Positions 5,355-56,041 of a stretch of 64,000 nucleotides of DNA are shown one piece after another. The notes below the pieces were generated by a model, which was given only the letters and a program-made list of their open reading frames with translations, was not told the origin of the DNA and did no database searches. The stretch is from positions 1,846-65,845 of the forward strand of contig DAIUCM010000004.1 in the NCBI GenBank assembly GCA_036846145.1, written 5' to 3'. The position numbers were made by a program, and so were the translations under genes. The stretch comes from Bacteroidota bacterium. Lineage in GTDB: Bacteria; Bacteroidota; Bacteroidia; CAILMK01. Within the stretch, counting starts at the first letter, position 1. Each line of letters opens with the position of its first letter.

Positions 5355-5989
5355 TTCTCGTATTTAGTGTAGAGCAAAATACCATAAATTATGTGCAGCA
5401 CGCCAAAGCCAATTGCCCAGAAGAGTAAGCCGTAGCCTAATAAAAACGCGGCAATTAAACCCAGGGCAATTTCGCATAAGCCCAGGGCACGTATGTCATC
5501 ATAAGTATATTTGCTTGCGTTCAACAAAGCCAGCCCGTAAAATATCAGTGTTACCGGGGCCACAAAACCAACTGCGCCATGGTATAGCAATATTATGCAG
5601 AAAATACCGCCTGCAACCAAAGGTATAAAAAGGTTTGCGAGCAGTCGCCTGGCCGTGCCATCCCATAACGCGTAACCATTTTTACGGGCTTTACGGGCAG
5701 AAAAGTAAAATGCAGCGAGTAATGATGCCGCCAGTACAAGTATGGCATCTGTAAAGAAAAATATATAAAATGATGGCTGTAAACGCCCGTTTAGTTCTCT
5801 TTCAATATTGTATTCATGCGCAATGGAGAAATCCATATCGAGGTACCAAAAAGCAACCGCAGCGCCAATGAGTGCAAAAAGGCCGATAAAAATACCCGAA
5901 AAGCCGCTGAGCGATAAAAACCTCGATGAGCGTTCCATCATCTGCCTGATCTGGCTCAGGTCCTGTAAATGTTGTTCTGTGCCCTGCAT
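5351..5989 (-). CDS. Membrane protein, hypothetical, co-transcribed with the wHTH regulator
   Basis: A 212-aa ORF with 5 TM helices and a 4-bp overlap with the regulator gene. Confidence 0.6.
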   Translation of the reverse strand: MQGTEQHLQDLSQIRQMMERSSRFLSLSGFSGIFIGLFALIGAAVAFWYLDMDFSIAHEYNIERELNGRLQPSFYIFFFTDAILVLAASLLAAFYFSARKARKNGYALWDGTARRLLANLFIPLVAGGIFCIILLYHGAVGFVAPVTLIFYGLALLNASKYTYDDIRALGLCEIALGLIAAFLLGYGLLFWAIGFGVLHIIYGILLYTKYEK

Positions 5990-6071
5990 ATATAAACTAT
6001 AGTAAAAGTACTTTGAAATACAAAGTAAATTATAAGTTTGTTCAGTTCCAAATATTTCCGGTTAAAAAAAA

Positions 6072-6692
6072 TTATTTATTTATAATGGCCGATAAAAAAG
6101 ATAGTGCTAAGATACCTGTGCCGGCGCCAATCCACACCTGGCCTGCTTTCTTACGTTTTGCCTGGCGAATATAACCGTCGTAATAATCGTGGTTATTCGT
6201 TAGCGTAACATCGGGTAAGTTAAGGTTGTGCTGTTTTGGCGGCGTTAATGAAATGGCTGTTGCTGTAATAATGCCTGCCGGCGGAAACAGCAATGTGCTA
6301 ATAAAGCCTGCCATAAACGGCCCGTTGGCTTTATAATTATTCTTGGCATCGATCTGGCCTTGCAGGTACATATCCTTTGCAGATAATCTGCCTTCCGCAC
6401 CCGGTTTTGAACGCCAGTTATTATGGTTGTTATCATCTGGCTTTTCTGCTTTTTCTGTTTTAAATACTTCTTTGGTGCCATTTGCATATTTAATCATAAA
6501 AACATCTTCCTTTAAAACAGTAATCACAGGCCCATCGGGGTTATTATGGTACTTAAACTTAATTTCTTCGGGTAAAATTTCAAGTACTTTGGCTTCTATT
6601 TCGGCGCCATCTTTTTTAATTACTACATCCTGCGCAGCACTGTTTAAAGCCATACCCAGCAACAAGCCAAGCACTATAATTATATTCTTCAT
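6072..6692 (-). CDS. Secreted or lipoprotein-like hypothetical protein
   Basis: A 206-aa ORF with the signal peptide MKNIIIVLGLLLGMALNSAAQ. Confidence 0.55.
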   Translation of the reverse strand: MKNIIIVLGLLLGMALNSAAQDVVIKKDGAEIEAKVLEILPEEIKFKYHNNPDGPVITVLKEDVFMIKYANGTKEVFKTEKAEKPDDNNHNNWRSKPGAEGRLSAKDMYLQGQIDAKNNYKANGPFMAGFISTLLFPPAGIITATAISLTPPKQHNLNLPDVTLTNNHDYYDGYIRQAKRKKAGQVWIGAGTGILALSFLSAIINK

Positions 6693-22337: not shown

Positions 22338-23537
22338 ATGTCTGAAAATATAATACTTTGGGATTATACTTCCCATAAAGCGCTGCTGCCCTTTACATTT
22401 ACCCGTCCGGCTGCCCTTATCCGCTGCGGAATTTTAACCATTGCAGAAAAATATTCGCACTATTTTAAAAGTGAGGTTTCATTTTTTACTGAAGAATACC
22501 TGCAAAGAAAATTCACCCTTAGCATACATAAAGGTTCAAACCTTTTAATTAACGCTACTATTTTGCCCGATGATAATTTCATCAATGCCTGTAATAACCT
22601 TGCAGCCGGTGAAGTGCTTATGCAGGATGATGTTTTCCTGGCCGGGAAATTAAGCGCTGATGAAATTTCGCATATAGCAGGTTCGGAAAAAATACCTTCC
22701 GCCAAGCAACGAAATTATAATGAAAGCATTTCTGCCATTAACCATATATGGGATATTTTCTCCCGTAACGACCAGGAATTGCGTAAAGATTTCGCATTGC
22801 TGACAAAGGGAAGAAAATCTCAGCCGATACACGAGAGCAATTATGTAAAAAATGCTGAAAATATATTTTTAGAGGAAGGCGCCAAAGTAGAAAACGCAAG
22901 CCTGAATGCATCTGACGGACCAATTTATTTGGCTGCAGATGCTGAAATTATGGAAGGCAGCCTTGTTCGCGGCCCGTTTAGTCTGGGCGAACATTCGCAA
23001 CTGAAACTTGGCGCAAAGATATACGGCGCTACAACCATTGGCCCGCATTGTAAGGTTGGCGGCGAGGTAAACAACAGCGTGTTTTTCGGCTATGCCAATA
23101 AAGCGCACGATGGTTTTGTAGGTAACGCTGTAATTGGCGAATGGTGTAATTTAGGCGCGGACAGCAACAATTCAAACCTTAAAAACAATTACGAAGAAGT
23201 AAAAGTGTGGAGCTATGAGAAAAATGGCTTCGCACGCACAGGATTGCAATTTGCCGGCTTGTTTATGGGCGATCATAGCAAATGCGGCATCAATACCATG
23301 TTTAATACAGGAACGGTTGTCGGCGTAAGCGCGAATATTTTCGGCGGCGGTTTTCCACGCAATTTCATTCCTTCTTTCAGCTGGGGCGGCTCTTCCGGCT
23401 TTACAACTTACCAGCTGAATAAAGCTTTGGATACGGCGCAAAAAGTTTTCGAAAGGCGTAAAATACAGCTCAGCGAAGTTGATACTGCCATACTGAATCA
23501 TATCTTTGAAGAAACGAAACAGCACAGAAACTTTTAG
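22338..23537 (+). CDS. Putative sugar nucleotidyltransferase, GlmU-like, with left-handed beta-helix repeats
   Basis: A nucleotidyltransferase-like N-half is followed by C-terminal hexapeptide repeats (GATTIGPHCKVGGEV...). I take the start at the ATG at 22338. Confidence 0.6.
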   Translation: MSENIILWDYTSHKALLPFTFTRPAALIRCGILTIAEKYSHYFKSEVSFFTEEYLQRKFTLSIHKGSNLLINATILPDDNFINACNNLAAGEVLMQDDVFLAGKLSADEISHIAGSEKIPSAKQRNYNESISAINHIWDIFSRNDQELRKDFALLTKGRKSQPIHESNYVKNAENIFLEEGAKVENASLNASDGPIYLAADAEIMEGSLVRGPFSLGEHSQLKLGAKIYGATTIGPHCKVGGEVNNSVFFGYANKAHDGFVGNAVIGEWCNLGADSNNSNLKNNYEEVKVWSYEKNGFARTGLQFAGLFMGDHSKCGINTMFNTGTVVGVSANIFGGGFPRNFIPSFSWGGSSGFTTYQLNKALDTAQKVFERRKIQLSEVDTAILNHIFEETKQHRNF

Positions 23538-29659: not shown

Positions 29660-30277
29660 ATGAATGTAATTGAAATTGTTTTATTTGTGCTTTGCTTTTT
29701 GGCAGGTTCATTACCTTTCGCGGTATGGATCGGTAAACTATTGTATAACAAAGATGTAAGGCAATTCGGCAGTGGTAATCCGGGCGCTACAAATACATTA
29801 AGAACTTTAGGACCCACGCCGGCACTCATCGTTTTACTATTGGATATCGCCAAAGGTATGGCCGGTGTGCTTATTCCTTATTTTTTCTACGAGGGCAGTT
29901 TGCTTTTACATGAAGAAGCTATGGCACTTGGCGGTGGATTATCTGTACTGGGACATATTTTTTCCCCGTTCTTAGGTTTTAAAGGTGGAAAGGGCGTGGC
30001 TACTACTGTTGGGGTAATGATTGCACTGCATTCCGGAATTGTAATATTCGTAATATTGAGCTTTGCGTTGGTTTTAATGCTAACCAAGTTTGTTTCGCTC
30101 TCCTCAATTGTGGCATCGGTTGTTTACGCAGTTTTGGTTATCCTTTTCCGGCCGGAATCTCAATTTATTATTGGATTCGCTATTTTTGTTGCAGCATTGG
30201 TGATTTATAAACATAAAGCCAATATTAACAGACTTTTACATGGAGAGGAAAGCAAGCTTAGTTTCAGGAAATCGTAA
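29660..30277 (+). CDS. plsY: Glycerol-3-phosphate acyltransferase PlsY
   Basis: A 205-aa ORF with the GSGNPGATN motif. Confidence 0.9.
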   Translation: MNVIEIVLFVLCFLAGSLPFAVWIGKLLYNKDVRQFGSGNPGATNTLRTLGPTPALIVLLLDIAKGMAGVLIPYFFYEGSLLLHEEAMALGGGLSVLGHIFSPFLGFKGGKGVATTVGVMIALHSGIVIFVILSFALVLMLTKFVSLSSIVASVVYAVLVILFRPESQFIIGFAIFVAALVIYKHKANINRLLHGEESKLSFRKS

Positions 30278-30281
30278 ATTC

Positions 30282-30351
30282 CATATATAACAATAGCAAA
30301 AAATGCTTTAGGTAGAGATACTTAAAGCATTTTTTGTTAGTTGTATATATG
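30282..30351. repeat. Full dyad element: CATATAT-N9-AAAAAATGCTTTA-loop-TAAAGCATTTTTT-N8-TATATATG
   Basis: A near-perfect 70-bp dyad directly after the plsY stop. It is the prototype of a family that recurs in full or half form at 25 or more sites. Confidence 0.8.
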
Positions 30352-30671
30352 TGGATTTTTAATTTTCATTTATGGATATTTGCCTGCGCTAATTTAAACG
30401 CAGTGGAAATTAGTGCATACTCAGATTTCACACTCTCTGAGTGTACCATTTTAATACAAATTACAAATTAATAAACAGATAACCATTACCGAAGTGTATA
30501 TTTACAGCAGTGAAGCACAATATTGCAACAAAGAAATTATTGATTTGCATTAACAATTCAAATTATGGATTAATGAGCGTTTTTGAAAAGGTGCACTCTG
30601 AGAGTGCGGGTCATTTTAAGCACCAATCTCCGCTTGCGCTCAGATTGGCGCAAGCGAAAGGGTATTGGTTA

Positions 30672-30742
30672 CATATATAATTCAACATAAAAATGCTTGA
30701 GAAATTAATACTTAAAGTATTTTTTATAAGCAACCTATATGT
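30672..30742. repeat. Second full dyad element, a variant with AAAAATGCTTGAG...CTTAAAGTATTTTTT
   Basis: It has the same architecture as 30282-30351 and lies 320 bp away. Confidence 0.75.
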
Positions 30743-30804
30743 AAGTTAAGAACAATTCAGCTATGTTTTTGCTTTTGATTGGTAAAGAACCAAATTTACC
30801 AGCA

Positions 30805-31605
30805 ATGAAAAAATTCCTGATTTTCTCCGTATTATGCATCAGCATATTCAGCACTTGCTCCAAAGTACCAATTACCAACCGCAACCAGTTTACCGCATTG
30901 CCCGAGAGCCAGCTTATTGCCATGGCCTTACAGCAATACCAGGGTTTTATAGATTCAACCGGTGTTGTTAGCGGCACATCTCAGGCTGAAATGGTAAAAC
31001 GCGTTGGCCAGAAATTATCTGCAGCAACAGTGCAGTTCATGAATGAAAATAAAATGGGCGACCGTGTTGCCAATTTCAAATGGGAATATAACCTTGTACA
31101 AAGCAACGATGTAAACGCATGGTGTATGCCGGGCGGTAAGATTGTAATTTATACCGGTATTTTACCAATTACACAAACCGAGCAGGGCCTTGCCGTGGTT
31201 ATGGGCCACGAAATTGCGCATGCAGTTGCCCGCCATGGTAACGAACGCATGAGCCAGGGTTTGGCAGCGCAGCTTGGCGGTGTAGGTTTGGATATTGCTT
31301 TATCGCAGAAACCGGCCGCCACACGTAACCTGTTTAACCTGGCTTATGGCGTAACAGCAAATTATGGCGTACTATTGCCTTACAGTCGTTTACAGGAAAG
31401 TGAAGCTGATAAACTTGGCCTCATTTTTATGGCAATGGCCGGTTACGATCCTAACGAAGCAGTTCCTTTCTGGCAAAGAATGGCAGCAGCATCTGGCGGA
31501 GCAGCGCCTCCTGAATTTATGAGCACGCACCCAAGCAATGAACGCCGTATTAAAGATATTCAGAAATATCTTCCTACAGCAATGAAATATAAGAAATCTC
31601 AGTAG
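30805..31605 (+). CDS. M48-family zinc metallopeptidase lipoprotein
   Basis: HEIAH is the HExxH motif, and the lipobox STCS follows MKKFLIFSVLCISIF. Confidence 0.85.
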   Translation: MKKFLIFSVLCISIFSTCSKVPITNRNQFTALPESQLIAMALQQYQGFIDSTGVVSGTSQAEMVKRVGQKLSAATVQFMNENKMGDRVANFKWEYNLVQSNDVNAWCMPGGKIVIYTGILPITQTEQGLAVVMGHEIAHAVARHGNERMSQGLAAQLGGVGLDIALSQKPAATRNLFNLAYGVTANYGVLLPYSRLQESEADKLGLIFMAMAGYDPNEAVPFWQRMAAASGGAAPPEFMSTHPSNERRIKDIQKYLPTAMKYKKSQ

Positions 31606-31712
31606 CGGTTTGGCGTTGAGCGGTTTGCGATTGGCGATGTGAGATTTTCTGATAATTAAAAATCTTATATTTTGCCAGAATGTAATATATAATACAATTA
31701 AAAATGCTTTAA

Positions 31713-32233: not shown

Positions 32234-34930
32234 ATGCGTATAGGTATTTTTTTCGGAGGAAAATCACGTGAGCGGGAAATATCTTTTGCCGGCGGAAGAA
32301 CGGTTTATGATCTTTTGGATAAATCGCTGTTTACACCGGTGCCGATTTTTGTTGACAGCCTTGGCAACTTTATTGAGCTGGACTGGCAATATCTGTACAA
32401 GGGCAGCATCCGCGATTTTTATCCGCCTGTTTCTTCCTTGCAAACCACTAAATTACCTTTCCAGGTTTATATAGAAAGCTTAAACTTACCGGAGGAAGAT
32501 ATTGATAAGGCTATTGCGCAAGTAGGTAAAAAACGCAGCATAGCGGAAATTAAAACACTAATAGATTTTGCTTTTCTTGCGCTGCACGGGCCGTTTGGTG
32601 AAGACGGAAGCCTGCAGGGCTTGTTCGAGTTTTATAATATCCCATATTCCGGTTCCGGCATTTTACCATCTGCCATTGGCATAGATAAACGTGTGCAGAA
32701 AGAACTGATGCAAAGCATGAATTTGCAGGTTGCAAAAGCCATATATGTAACCCGTAAAAAATGGTTCGATTCGCAGGAAAACCGCAAAGATCTGTTTACC
32801 GAAGCGCAGCAAAACTTCAACTTGCCTGTAGTTATCAAATCATCTACACAAGGCTCCTCTATAGGAATTTCTATTTTGCGCAACTGGGATTTTGTAACGT
32901 TTGAATCCCAGATAAATGAAAGCTTCTTCCAAAAAACCATATTTGCGGCCGATTGGAAAAAACTTACCGCTGAAGAAGAAAAACGCAGGTTTGTACAGCA
33001 GGTTAGCGATATTTATGAAGGTTACGGTATTCCATTCCTGATCAATAATAAAACCTGGGTTTATCATCCGCAGCAATTATTCGATTTCCTTGACGATCAT
33101 TTCAACCAAAATAATGAGCCTGTAACACTTGAAAGTTACCAGGGCGAAAGAGCTGTTTTAATTGAGGAGTTTATAAAAGGCAAAGAATTCAGCTGCATAG
33201 TTGTGGAAGGCGAACATGGCGAAGCTATTGCCCTCCCTCCTACCGAGATCATAAAATCTACCGATATTTTCGATTATCGTTCCAAATATTTGCCGGGCAT
33301 TTCCAGGAAAGTTACTCCTATAGAATTACCGGAAGAGATTGTAAACCATATAAGTGCGGCTTGCGAGGAATTATATAAAAATCTGCATTTCAACGTTTAC
33401 GCGCGTATTGACGGGTTAATTACAGCCGATGGCAAGATTTACCTTAATGATCCGAATACCACTTCGGGAATGCTGCCATCATCTTTTTTCTTTCACCAGG
33501 CGGCTGAGATCGGCGTCTCGCCAAGCCAGTTTTTAACGTACATTATTTTTAAATCTTTCGAAAACCGCATAGCTTCATCGCCAAATCCGCACCAGGTCAT
33601 TCAAAGCTTTAAAACGCTGCAAAACAGCCTTACTTACAATGCGCAGCACAATGCAGGCAAACAAAAAGTAGGAGTAATTTTAGGCGGAATTTCTACCGAA
33701 AGACATATTTCCGTAGAGAGCGGCAGAAATGTTTACGAGAAATTATCGAGCAGCGGAAAATACGATGCTTCACCGGTTTTCCTCACCGGGAAAGATGGTG
33801 AAATAGAGTTTTATACTTTACCGTTAAATCTTTTACTGAAAGATAATGCCGATGATATTGCCGATAAAGCCAGGCATTTCCACATTTCGCCAATTACAGA
33901 AAAAATCATTGAAAAAGCGAGATATATTACGGAGAAATTTGCATCGAGCAACTATAATTTCTATCCAAAAAAGGTAACATTAGATGAACTGCAGCAAACG
34001 GTTGACAGTATTTTTATTGCATTGCATGGCAGGCCGGGCGAAGATGGAACGCTGCAGAAACTGCTCGAGGCGCGTGGAATGCCATACAACGGCTCCAGTT
34101 CCGATTCATCGTCGGTAACAATCAATAAATTTATTACCAACGAAAAGCTGAGAGAAAACGGATTTCTTATTCCGCAACATATATTGGTAACAAGGCAAAA
34201 ATGGCAGGCCAATAAAACCGCCATATTAGCTGAGATTGAAAAATACCTTCAGTTTCCCTGCATTGCAAAACCGGCCGATGACGGCTGCTCATCGGCAGTA
34301 AAGAAAATTAACAACCGTGCTGAATTTGAGGCTTTTGCAGAAGGTATGTTCCGCACACAGGAAGCACTTGATAAGGACATTTTACGCATTCTTGATCTGA
34401 AAGCGAGTGAAGAGTTTCCGCAGAAAGATTTCTTTGTTGTGGAAGAACTGGTAAGTCCCAAAGGCGCTAAGCATTTCCTGGAAATTACCGGCGGTATGCT
34501 TACCCGTAAAAACGGGCAGAACGAGGTAACTTACGAGATCTTCGAACCGAGTGAAGCATTGGCCCAAAAAGGCATATTATCGCTCGAGGAGAAATTCCTG
34601 GCCGGAGAAGGGCAGAATATAACGCCGGCAAGATTTTCGGCATTTACTGAAGAGAACAGCATGATTTCCGCAACTGTACGGAATACTTTAATGGAAGCCG
34701 CCAAAGTATTAAATATAGAAGGTTATTGCAGGATCGACGCTTTCGTAAGGATATATGATGCGAGGCATGTTGAGGTTATTTTTATTGAAGTGAACTCGCT
34801 GCCGGGCTTAACTCCCGCAACCTGTATTTTCCACCAGGCAGCTTTAAACGGCTACAAACCATTTGATTTTTTAGACCAGATTATACAATACGGAATTTCT
34901 AAAGTACAAGGCATTGAAGAAAATAATTGA
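32234..34930 (+). CDS. Tandem-duplicated D-alanine--D-alanine ligase-like protein with two Ddl N-domain plus ATP-grasp modules
   Basis: The 898-aa ORF shows a Ddl signature twice: MRIGIFFGGKSREREIS...LHGPFGEDGSLQ in the first half and KVGVILGGISTERHIS...LHGRPGEDGTLQ in the second. Confidence 0.8.
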   Translation: MRIGIFFGGKSREREISFAGGRTVYDLLDKSLFTPVPIFVDSLGNFIELDWQYLYKGSIRDFYPPVSSLQTTKLPFQVYIESLNLPEEDIDKAIAQVGKKRSIAEIKTLIDFAFLALHGPFGEDGSLQGLFEFYNIPYSGSGILPSAIGIDKRVQKELMQSMNLQVAKAIYVTRKKWFDSQENRKDLFTEAQQNFNLPVVIKSSTQGSSIGISILRNWDFVTFESQINESFFQKTIFAADWKKLTAEEEKRRFVQQVSDIYEGYGIPFLINNKTWVYHPQQLFDFLDDHFNQNNEPVTLESYQGERAVLIEEFIKGKEFSCIVVEGEHGEAIALPPTEIIKSTDIFDYRSKYLPGISRKVTPIELPEEIVNHISAACEELYKNLHFNVYARIDGLITADGKIYLNDPNTTSGMLPSSFFFHQAAEIGVSPSQFLTYIIFKSFENRIASSPNPHQVIQSFKTLQNSLTYNAQHNAGKQKVGVILGGISTERHISVESGRNVYEKLSSSGKYDASPVFLTGKDGEIEFYTLPLNLLLKDNADDIADKARHFHISPITEKIIEKARYITEKFASSNYNFYPKKVTLDELQQTVDSIFIALHGRPGEDGTLQKLLEARGMPYNGSSSDSSSVTINKFITNEKLRENGFLIPQHILVTRQKWQANKTAILAEIEKYLQFPCIAKPADDGCSSAVKKINNRAEFEAFAEGMFRTQEALDKDILRILDLKASEEFPQKDFFVVEELVSPKGAKHFLEITGGMLTRKNGQNEVTYEIFEPSEALAQKGILSLEEKFLAGEGQNITPARFSAFTEENSMISATVRNTLMEAAKVLNIEGYCRIDAFVRIYDARHVEVIFIEVNSLPGLTPATCIFHQAALNGYKPFDFLDQIIQYGISKVQGIEENN

Positions 34931-51187: not shown

Positions 51188-51248
51188 GAAATTATATTAT
51201 AACACATAATGCAACCCGAAAACCGTTAACCGCAAACCGCCAAAGCTA

Positions 51249-55643: not shown

Positions 55644-55830
55644 TTACATTTAATAACGTGAGCTCTGGCATTAATTGTTTTATTTTCAGCAATTTAATTC
55701 CAGTATTACATATATCCCTTAGTCGAAAAATGCCCCGAGGTATCGGGATATATTACTTTAAACCTTGATTTGAATTGGACGCACAAATTCAGTACATGGG
55801 TTTGTTCTGCGAAGTTTTAAACTTCGCATA

Positions 55831-55864
55831 TTTTAACTGGTAGTTTGCAAACTACCAGTTAAAA
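55831..55864. promoter_or_regulatory. A 34-bp perfect palindrome, candidate operator or protein-binding site
   Basis: ttttaactggtagtttgcaaactaccagttaaaa. The adjacent gcgaagttttaaacttcgc is a near-palindrome. Confidence 0.5.
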
Positions 55865-55974
55865 TAATCTTAGCAAAAATGCTATGATTAGCAGTAATAC
55901 TATCTGATTAATTCCCAAGTTCACATCTTAATAGCAAAACAAAGCATTTTTTGCACTCCCTATATATGGGCGTT

Positions 55975-56041
55975 TAACATAATACGAGAAAACCGCATTT
56001 GCAAAGCTGCAAGTGCGGTTTTCTCGTATTATGTTATTTTC
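55975..56041 (+). terminator. Hairpin with a 22-bp perfect stem followed by a T-rich tract
   Basis: aacataatacgagaaaaccgca / tgcggttttctcgtattatgtt with a 17-nt loop, then attttc. Confidence 0.5.

Follow-up and report, generated by a model that had tools for sequence, protein, structure and literature searches.

What occupies the non-coding space between plsY and the M48 family peptidase gene in an uncultured member of the Bacteroidia, and why is it framed by two dyad elements? The window, a stretch of 64,000 nt from contig DAIUCM010000004.1 (GenBank assembly GCA_036846145.1, Bacteroidota bacterium), carries at this junction a core of 320 bp (30352-30671) with one dyad on either side. A sequence-only reading had described this layout and offered two explanations: a composite insertion resembling a MITE (miniature inverted-repeat transposable element), or a small RNA (sRNA) gene insulated by terminator-like palindromes. 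The described features were all confirmed, and the interpretation is supported in part; the main value of the finding is that it exposed a motif found throughout the genome. With a probability of roughly 55%, we propose that this motif is a clade-specific sequence resembling DNA uptake sequences, and that a low-copy, MITE-like foldback cassette is lodged at a terminator built from it.

The bipartite motif of the dyad arms

Each arm of the two dyads is one copy of a 28-bp bipartite motif, CATATAT-N11-AAAATGCTTT. With 1 + 2 mismatches allowed, 45 copies were found in the window (about 1 per 1.4 kb), compared with a mean of 0.6 in Markov-1 simulations, and AAAATGCTTT is the most frequent 10-mer of the window. 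The gap between the two blocks is fixed: CATATA stands at the 11-nt gap in 17 of the 24 exact occurrences of AAAATGCTTT and was found 0 times at the other gaps from 6 to 16, while the 11 spacer bases are nearly information-free. The copies are distributed over both strands (26 on + and 19 on -). Intergenic spacers, which make up 16% of the sequence, contain 26 copies, and the remaining 19 lie wholly within genes, resulting in a density about 7 times higher in spacers. The spacer copies are found between convergent, tandem and divergent genes with no fixed distance from starts. The motif-bearing genes are Pfam-supported housekeeping genes, such as those for AlaRS, iPGM, a GT2 glycosyltransferase, a polysaccharide deacetylase, a Mur ligase and PrmA, among others.

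The clade DNA examined amounts to 97 kb, comprising the window and 33 kb from three related contigs, L082, L084 and L088. The nearest relatives have PlsY proteins 75-77% identical to that of the window, and one of them is annotated 'Bacteroidia bacterium'. The sorting domains of the type IX secretion system (T9SS) and the promoter type of the window fit Bacteroidota, and a Logan assembly is identical to the window over the studied segment. The motif density in the three relatives is 0.87 per kb (17 copies in 20.6 kb of L082 and 4 in 4.8 kb of L084, for example). The syntenic sister lineages L085-L087, with PlsY 48-54% identical, yielded 1 weak match in 52.5 kb (0.02 per kb), and 849 kb from 80 genomes of other phyla yielded 7 matches (0.008 per kb). 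The entire IMG/VR database contained 43 exact matches, each being the sole one on its contig.

In the alignable part, 11 of the 15 window copies have a motif copy at the orthologous position of L082. At the 11 orthologous sites the 17 motif positions are 97.9% identical, compared with 67% for the spacers and 61% for the flanks, a contrast that is inflated by the selection of these sites as motif matches in both genomes. At four coding sites, the clade proteins depart from the sister-lineage proteins at just the residues that spell the motif, and in one gene an extra codon, found in the clade and not in the outgroups, sets the motif spacing. Therefore, the coding copies arose by substitution under DNA-level pressure; insertion of a mini-element was rejected, as the copies differ from the outgroups by substitutions and a single codon. 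Intragenic copies thus reshape protein sequences, which is relevant to annotation.

Could the motif simply be the site of an abundant DNA-binding protein unrelated to uptake, for example one that is associated with the nucleoid, regulates globally or acts in termination or topology, with the dyads representing two such sites each? This is possible, and we consider it a serious competitor of lower probability. Two conserved blocks about two helical turns apart over a free 11-nt spacer would suit a two-domain or dimeric protein, and the spacer enrichment, together with the many copies at gene 3' ends beside ordinary GC-rich terminators, points in the same direction. However, the 19 sites within housekeeping genes, on both strands, reshape protein sequence, and we know of no regulator or nucleoid protein described with intragenic sites that do so. 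In addition, the use of all three kinds of spacer at no fixed distance from starts speaks against a regulator, and nucleoid-protein sites are typically far less specific than these 17 near-invariant bases.

Three further roles were tried and rejected or judged unlikely. Bacteroidota -7 boxes (TAnnTTTG) are present 5-50 nt before many starts in the window, separately from the motif, and the motif is therefore not a housekeeping promoter; it contains no such box and occurs within genes, in convergent spacers and in both orientations. A translation start context was rejected as full motifs never coincide with gene starts. A Chi- or KOPS-like polar signal is unlikely for a motif of 28 bp with a strand split of only 26:19.

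Several single observations touch on the motif and its surroundings. The start ATG of gatB (48160-48171) belongs to an isolated half-motif, GAAAATGCTTTC, that lacks a CATATAT half upstream. At three gene ends (20647, 54884 and 60770) the TAA stop is the start of a reverse-complement motif (TAAAGCATTTTT or TAAGCATTTTT), and a GC-rich terminator follows the motif in two of them (20647 and 54884). Two repeats of about 75 nt (46624-46700 and 48088-48160), upstream of a penicillinase-repressor-like gene and of gatB, respectively, consist of a motif copy followed by (T/C)ATTGGCTAATT..AATTGGCTAATTGGCTAATTAA, that is TTGGCTAA three times; longer motif-containing repeat subfamilies therefore exist. TAnnTTTG boxes stand only 5-20 nt before several start codons (32219, 54987, 57716 and others), which suggests many very short-leader or leaderless mRNAs.

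Other repeats were also seen in spacers of the clade. Short-period, low-complexity repeats include (TACTTCT)x5 before the M48 gene of L082 (10808-10842) and GGAAGGTTGGATAGTTAGAAGGTT in L084 (2565-2590), and runs similar to GGTTTGCG occur in the window at 31606-31645 and 51190-51248. The short-period repeats are reminiscent of the intergenic heptamer repeats reported for Beggiatoaceae in a paper that mentions Bacteroidetes too (PMC4679880). The 538-nt spacer between the cyclophilin and iPGM genes contains a perfect 19+19-nt palindrome (55829-55866) and a hairpin with 29-nt arms that are 97% complementary (55975-56036).

The predicted plsY terminator and the foldback cassette behind it

The 33-nt arms of dyad 1 (30282-30314 and 30319-30351) are 85% complementary around a 4-nt loop and fold to -39.5 kcal/mol with a z-score of -12.3. 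The dyad starts 5 nt after the plsY stop codon, and its stem-loop core (30294-30339) displays a GAGA loop and is followed by UUUUUUG (TTTTTTG in DNA). A simple terminator scan also called it as a terminator. The G.U pairs favour the plsY sense strand, the opposite strand folding to only -26.1 kcal/mol. In L082 (10636-10704) and L084 (2486-2555), a head-to-head motif pair likewise stands directly 3' of plsY, with identical motif blocks and different spacers, and folds to -33.4 and -32.2 kcal/mol, respectively. The hairpin, the U-tract, the G.U bias towards the sense strand and the conservation after plsY together point to dyad 1 as the predicted bidirectional intrinsic terminator of plsY, built from two inverted motif copies and conserved in relatives.

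Dyad 2 repeats dyad 1 directly over 74 nt with 70% identity, and its fold reaches no more than -14 kcal/mol (z = -2.6). The sequence-only reading had located both dyads correctly and was generous in calling the degenerate second one full. Its term terminator-like palindromes is apt for dyad 1, with its hairpin and U-tract, and it had overlooked that the dyads are pairs of a genome-wide motif. For annotation, the dyads are to be regarded as terminators and not as the ends of a mobile element.

Only three head-to-head motif pairs exist in the window, the two dyads and one intragenic pair at 22671-22750; most motif copies are single. The intragenic pair lies within the coding sequence of an NTP_transf_4 protein; of its two copies L082 retains just the second, and at this place the clade carries a codon more than the sister lineages. 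The opposite arrangement, a tail-to-tail pair with a shared self-complementary centre, CATATATG, was observed in L082 at 516-563.

The core between the dyads contains the features that had been described for it, namely two related palindromes with 6-bp stems, acactctctgagtgt (30430-30444) and gcactctgagagtgc (30593-30607), and a 9-bp GC hairpin, cgcttgcgc/gcgcaagcg, at 30631-30656. It has no open reading frame (ORF) of at least 60 aa, the longest one overlapping it being 56 aa, and it folds better than shuffled sequences, with z-scores of -4.75 on the + strand and -5.5 on the - strand. A 24-nt pattern common to both palindromes has 2 matches in the window, compared with 0.00 expected; these features are not due to chance. 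Both 15-nt palindromes are included in a 77-nt inverted repeat, 30379-30454 against 30583-30658, with an identity of 70%. Moreover, 30279-30745 forms one imperfect palindrome, the left half being 72% identical to the reverse complement of the right half over 206 positions, with an alignment score of 117 against 55 ± 7.6 for shuffles.

Comparison with the relatives revealed that the gene order of a large protein, plsY, M48 and a Ddl fusion is kept in L082, L084 and a contig of the Joint Genome Institute (JGI). The plsY-to-M48 spacer measures 485 nt in the window, 282, 252 and 99 nt in relatives and, in a sister lineage, 49 nt. Neither the core nor dyad 2 is present in the relatives, in which 112-143 nt of unrelated sequence separate dyad 1 from a conserved block before M48. 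The junction thus lacks the insert in these genomes, but their spacers are not a precise empty site. The conserved block probably holds the M48 promoter, with only an imperfect -7-like box. By its sequence, the segment of about 390 bp after dyad 1, comprising the core and dyad 2, is a lineage-specific, non-coding foldback cassette, in which two inverted 81-nt modules, L and R, surround an AT-rich centre. A protein gene in the core was rejected, because the frame that is open in module L is interrupted by a stop in L088. Comparison of the core with plasmids, phages and viral contigs gave no match.

The two palindromes, ACACTC-N3-GAGTGT and GCACTC-N3-GAGTGC, are perfect over 15 bp, 163 bp apart and located 5' of M48, as expected if they were operators of a dimeric regulator controlling the peptidase gene. 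Such a function is very improbable, since the relatives keep M48 together with the conserved upstream block of about 55 nt and yet have no palindromes, and since the copy in L088 described below sits between convergent gene ends.

The two-hairpin module and its second locus

A metagenome scan of 241 million records with the exact arm pattern found one other locus, L088 (MWWI01000493.1), which has 8 motif copies in 7.8 kb and otherwise no similarity to the window. The identity of its 81-nt module (6056-6126 aligned to module L) is 89% with the left arm and 76% with the right arm. The L088 module sits between convergent gene ends and is bracketed by two dyads of the same subtype as those of the window, with the loop GGTAGAAATACTT. 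Thus, the dyad-module-dyad composite is a repeated unit present at unrelated loci. A truncated inverted copy of the module start follows the L088 module. In addition, a 116-nt direct repeat (5904-6019 and 6167-6282, 89.7% identical), consisting of a dyad and 45 nt, flanks the module; it may stem from tandem duplication or be left over from recombination at the dyads.

These data bear on whether the cassette is a local accident, that is, a decaying inverted duplication of the plsY terminator and the DNA downstream of it, with neither mobility nor function. The segment does form a single imperfect palindrome, its dyad pair (70%) and inner arms (70%) are similarly diverged, as from a single event, and the plsY-M48 spacer is hypervariable among relatives. 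However, another genome has a homologous composite at a locus unrelated to this one, and the hairpins of the diverged arm are kept by compensatory changes instead of being lost. The left arm resembles the L088 copy more than its own partner arm, which makes a purely local inverted duplication unlikely; we give this alternative only a small chance.

The three module copies share hairpin 1 (hp1, 10 bp) and hairpin 2 (hp2, 6 bp). Over 16 hairpin pairs in three copies, all 48 of the 48 cells are standard pairs; 3 pairs are changed on both sides in the diverged copy and 0 are broken. In a test of these compensatory changes, 22 of 500 shuffles did equally well, and a single diverged sequence provides the support; the covariation is therefore a hint and not proof. 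A covariance model of the module (R1) scored 96 bits for module L and 91.5 bits for module R, and detected no further copy in the 97 kb of clade DNA. Folded singly, the modules reach modest z-scores of -4.2, -3.2 and -1.2, and module R prefers a different hairpin, the GC hairpin at 30631-30656 being an alternative fold.

Does the core then encode one or two converging sRNAs, with module L read on + and module R on -, insulated and terminated by the flanking dyads? Intact hairpins in all three copies would fit an RNA product, and so would a G.U pair in hp1 that is kept in every copy and fits the modelled strand only. Further points in favour are the sequence ACCWUUUYAA after hp2, the strong terminator dyads on both sides at both loci, and the position of the L088 copy between convergent gene ends, so that the module is not a 5' leader there. 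However, the whole window gave no match to Rfam at gathering thresholds, and permissive scans of 30100-30900 and of the L088 copy, to E = 10, returned only unrelated sub-threshold families (miRNA, snoRNA and miscellaneous bacterial sRNAs). A search for tRNA and transfer-messenger RNA found none. The core has no exact TAnnTTTG box, and the three module copies share no promoter-like sequence upstream. Together with the modest folds, the other hairpin favoured by module R, the single source of the covariation and the absence of the module from the plsY-M48 locus of relatives, these results make an sRNA doubtful, and the second explanation of the sequence-only reading is not supported, although the three compensatory changes count in its favour.

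The first explanation, a MITE-like composite insertion, is the better supported of the two, since the core and dyad 2 are missing in relatives and a module arm recurs at the unrelated L088 locus; neither a target-site duplication nor a transposase partner goes with it, and only three module copies are available. The features of the locus are listed in Table 1.

Table 1. Features between plsY and the M48 peptidase gene, in window coordinates
Feature	Position	Strand	Details
plsY (glycerol-3-phosphate acyltransferase), upstream gene	29660..30277	+	PF02660; 100% identical protein in public assemblies
Dyad 1, head-to-head pair of the 28-bp motif	30282..30351		Motif copies 30282-30309 (+) and 30324-30351 (-)
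Linker	30352..30378		TTTCATTTATGGA similar to the sequence 3' of dyad A in L088
Module L, 81-nt two-hairpin module	30379..30460	+	hp1 30386-30395/30407-30416; hp2 30430-30435/30439-30444; 3' end ACCATTTTAATAC
AT-rich palindrome centre	30461..30577		No copy in L088; short ORFs only, longest contained 31 aa (- strand)
Module R, inverted and more diverged module copy	30578..30658	-	hp2 30593-30607; hp1 30620-30629/30642-30651
Dyad 2, degenerate head-to-head motif pair	30672..30741		Motif copies 30672-30699 (+) and 30714-30741 (-); no match in relatives
Conserved block directly 5' of M48	30750..30804	+	Alignable with L082 10849-10904 and L084 2669-2725
M48 family peptidase gene	30805..31605	+	PF01435, E = 2e-36; orthologues in relatives; conserved start MKKF

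At the palindrome centre, a hydrophobic small ORF lies on the - strand (30461-30556), of 31 aa from a TTG or 29 aa from an internal ATG, MQINNFFVAILCFTAVNIHFGNGYLFINL; it is absent from the shorter L088 element. Downstream of M48, a protein of 898 aa in which two D-Ala-D-Ala ligase units are joined in tandem is encoded at 32234-34930 (+) and is kept in relatives (L082 12038-14722).

A proposed uptake-like motif and its closest known systems

Taking the motif and the cassette together, we favour the following scheme. The motif would behave as DNA uptake sequences do in Neisseriaceae and Pasteurellaceae, where they likewise pair into terminators, and its likeliest function would be biased uptake or recombination of self DNA. 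The cassette would be a low-copy, non-autonomous mobile unit, which may have entered by recombination at the resident dyad, with the dyads serving as portable homology, or by MITE-like transposition. The module hairpins are probably read as folded single strands, of DNA or RNA, because they are kept by compensatory changes. If the cassette affects the host at all, it probably does no more than shield the M48 promoter from read-through.

A number of observations weigh against this scheme. No com, dprA or pilus gene was found by Pfam among the approximately 50 window genes, although 64 kb says little in this respect. The sevenfold intergenic enrichment of the motif fits a DNA-binding regulator or nucleoid protein as well, and the conservation at orthologous sites carries the selection effect given above. 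As for the cassette, the module is known in three copies at two loci only, and dyads 1 and 2 have diverged to 70% identity, which makes any recombination at the dyad an old event. The left arm shares more identity with L088 (89%) than with the right arm (70-76%), and a simple one-step history is insufficient to account for this. No target-site duplication was recognisable around the cassette, as no flank is duplicated and the symmetry fades gradually into the dyads, and no clear cassette end was found. No partner transposase or insertion sequence (IS) turned up, and no clade genome was searched for an autonomous element with the same ends.

A bolder extension of the uptake-like reading is that CATATAT-N11-AAAATGCTTT represents a third, independently evolved family of uptake sequences, the first outside Proteobacteria, with a bipartite form recognised by a receptor, and that its inverted pairs act both as terminators and as portable homology by which transformation and recombination would move small non-coding cassettes between loci. 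We put this forward only tentatively. In the literature found, sequence-specific DNA uptake is confined to two proteobacterial families, and a search on the motif strings and on uptake sequences in Bacteroidetes found no relevant report. The motif offers a candidate signal of self-DNA recognition that can be tested, in a phylum with no known example. It could be used as a 28-bp bait for the protein that reads it, and as a cheap marker for binning and tracking the clade in metagenomes. If it is an uptake signal, a secreted nucleic-acid binder would be of interest; a candidate is a 1051-aa T9SS cargo protein encoded at 39661-42816 (-), with DUF5689 and Calx-beta domains and a weak match to a nucleic-acid-binding OB-fold. 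The cassette shows that such repeats can bracket small non-coding inserts, and they may help their movement.

The closest known counterparts of the motif are the DNA uptake sequence (DUS) of Neisseriaceae and the uptake signal sequence (USS) of Pasteurellaceae ('DUES'). Like the motif, they occur about once per kb, on both strands and both within and between genes; copies inside genes dictate amino acids, inverted pairs in spacers form terminators directly 3' of genes, and the sequences are confined to one lineage, where orthologous sites keep them. The USS is also multipart, with its parts spaced by helical turns. The motif differs from both in having no sequence similarity to them and in being AT-rich and bipartite, with 7 + 10 bases and a free 11-nt gap. 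Moreover, its host is an uncultured Bacteroidia clade, a larger share of the copies is found in spacers (58%), and its role in uptake is putative. A survey of 177 genomes reported that DUS and USS occur in genes and spacers and constrain amino acids, and that their inverted pairs lie mostly in terminators (bioRxiv 10.1101/2025.10.24.684340); density, presence on both strands and restriction to one lineage are among the properties it describes for them.

Two other repeat classes resemble the motif in part. Repetitive extragenic palindromes and their mosaic elements (REP/BIME), associated with RAYT transposases, are also repeats that form hairpins at the 3' ends of genes, frequently as inverted pairs, and compensatory changes preserve their stems. 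However, the 28-bp unit is not self-complementary, 19 of its 45 copies (42%) are intragenic whereas REPs are extragenic, and no RAYT gene was seen. HIP1 of cyanobacteria is likewise lineage-specific, hyper-abundant in coding and non-coding DNA and of no settled function, but it is an 8-bp palindrome, whereas the motif is 28 bp long, asymmetric and bipartite.

The cassette is best compared with MITEs, such as Correia of Neisseria and BrickBuilt of Porphyromonas gingivalis, which are also non-coding foldback elements of a few hundred bp with long inverted arms. Like them, it lies in a spacer beside a gene end, is missing at the same site in relatives and has a second copy elsewhere. In contrast, it is known at two loci only, with no target-site duplication, sharp terminus or partner IS found, and is bracketed by copies of a host-wide repeat in place of short terminal repeats of its own. 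In neisserial minimal mobile elements, the cassette lodged between conserved genes varies and is exchanged through transformation and homologous recombination. The conserved pair plsY/M48 similarly holds unrelated spacer contents in different relatives; those cassettes usually bear genes, whereas the one described here has none and is only a candidate for such exchange.
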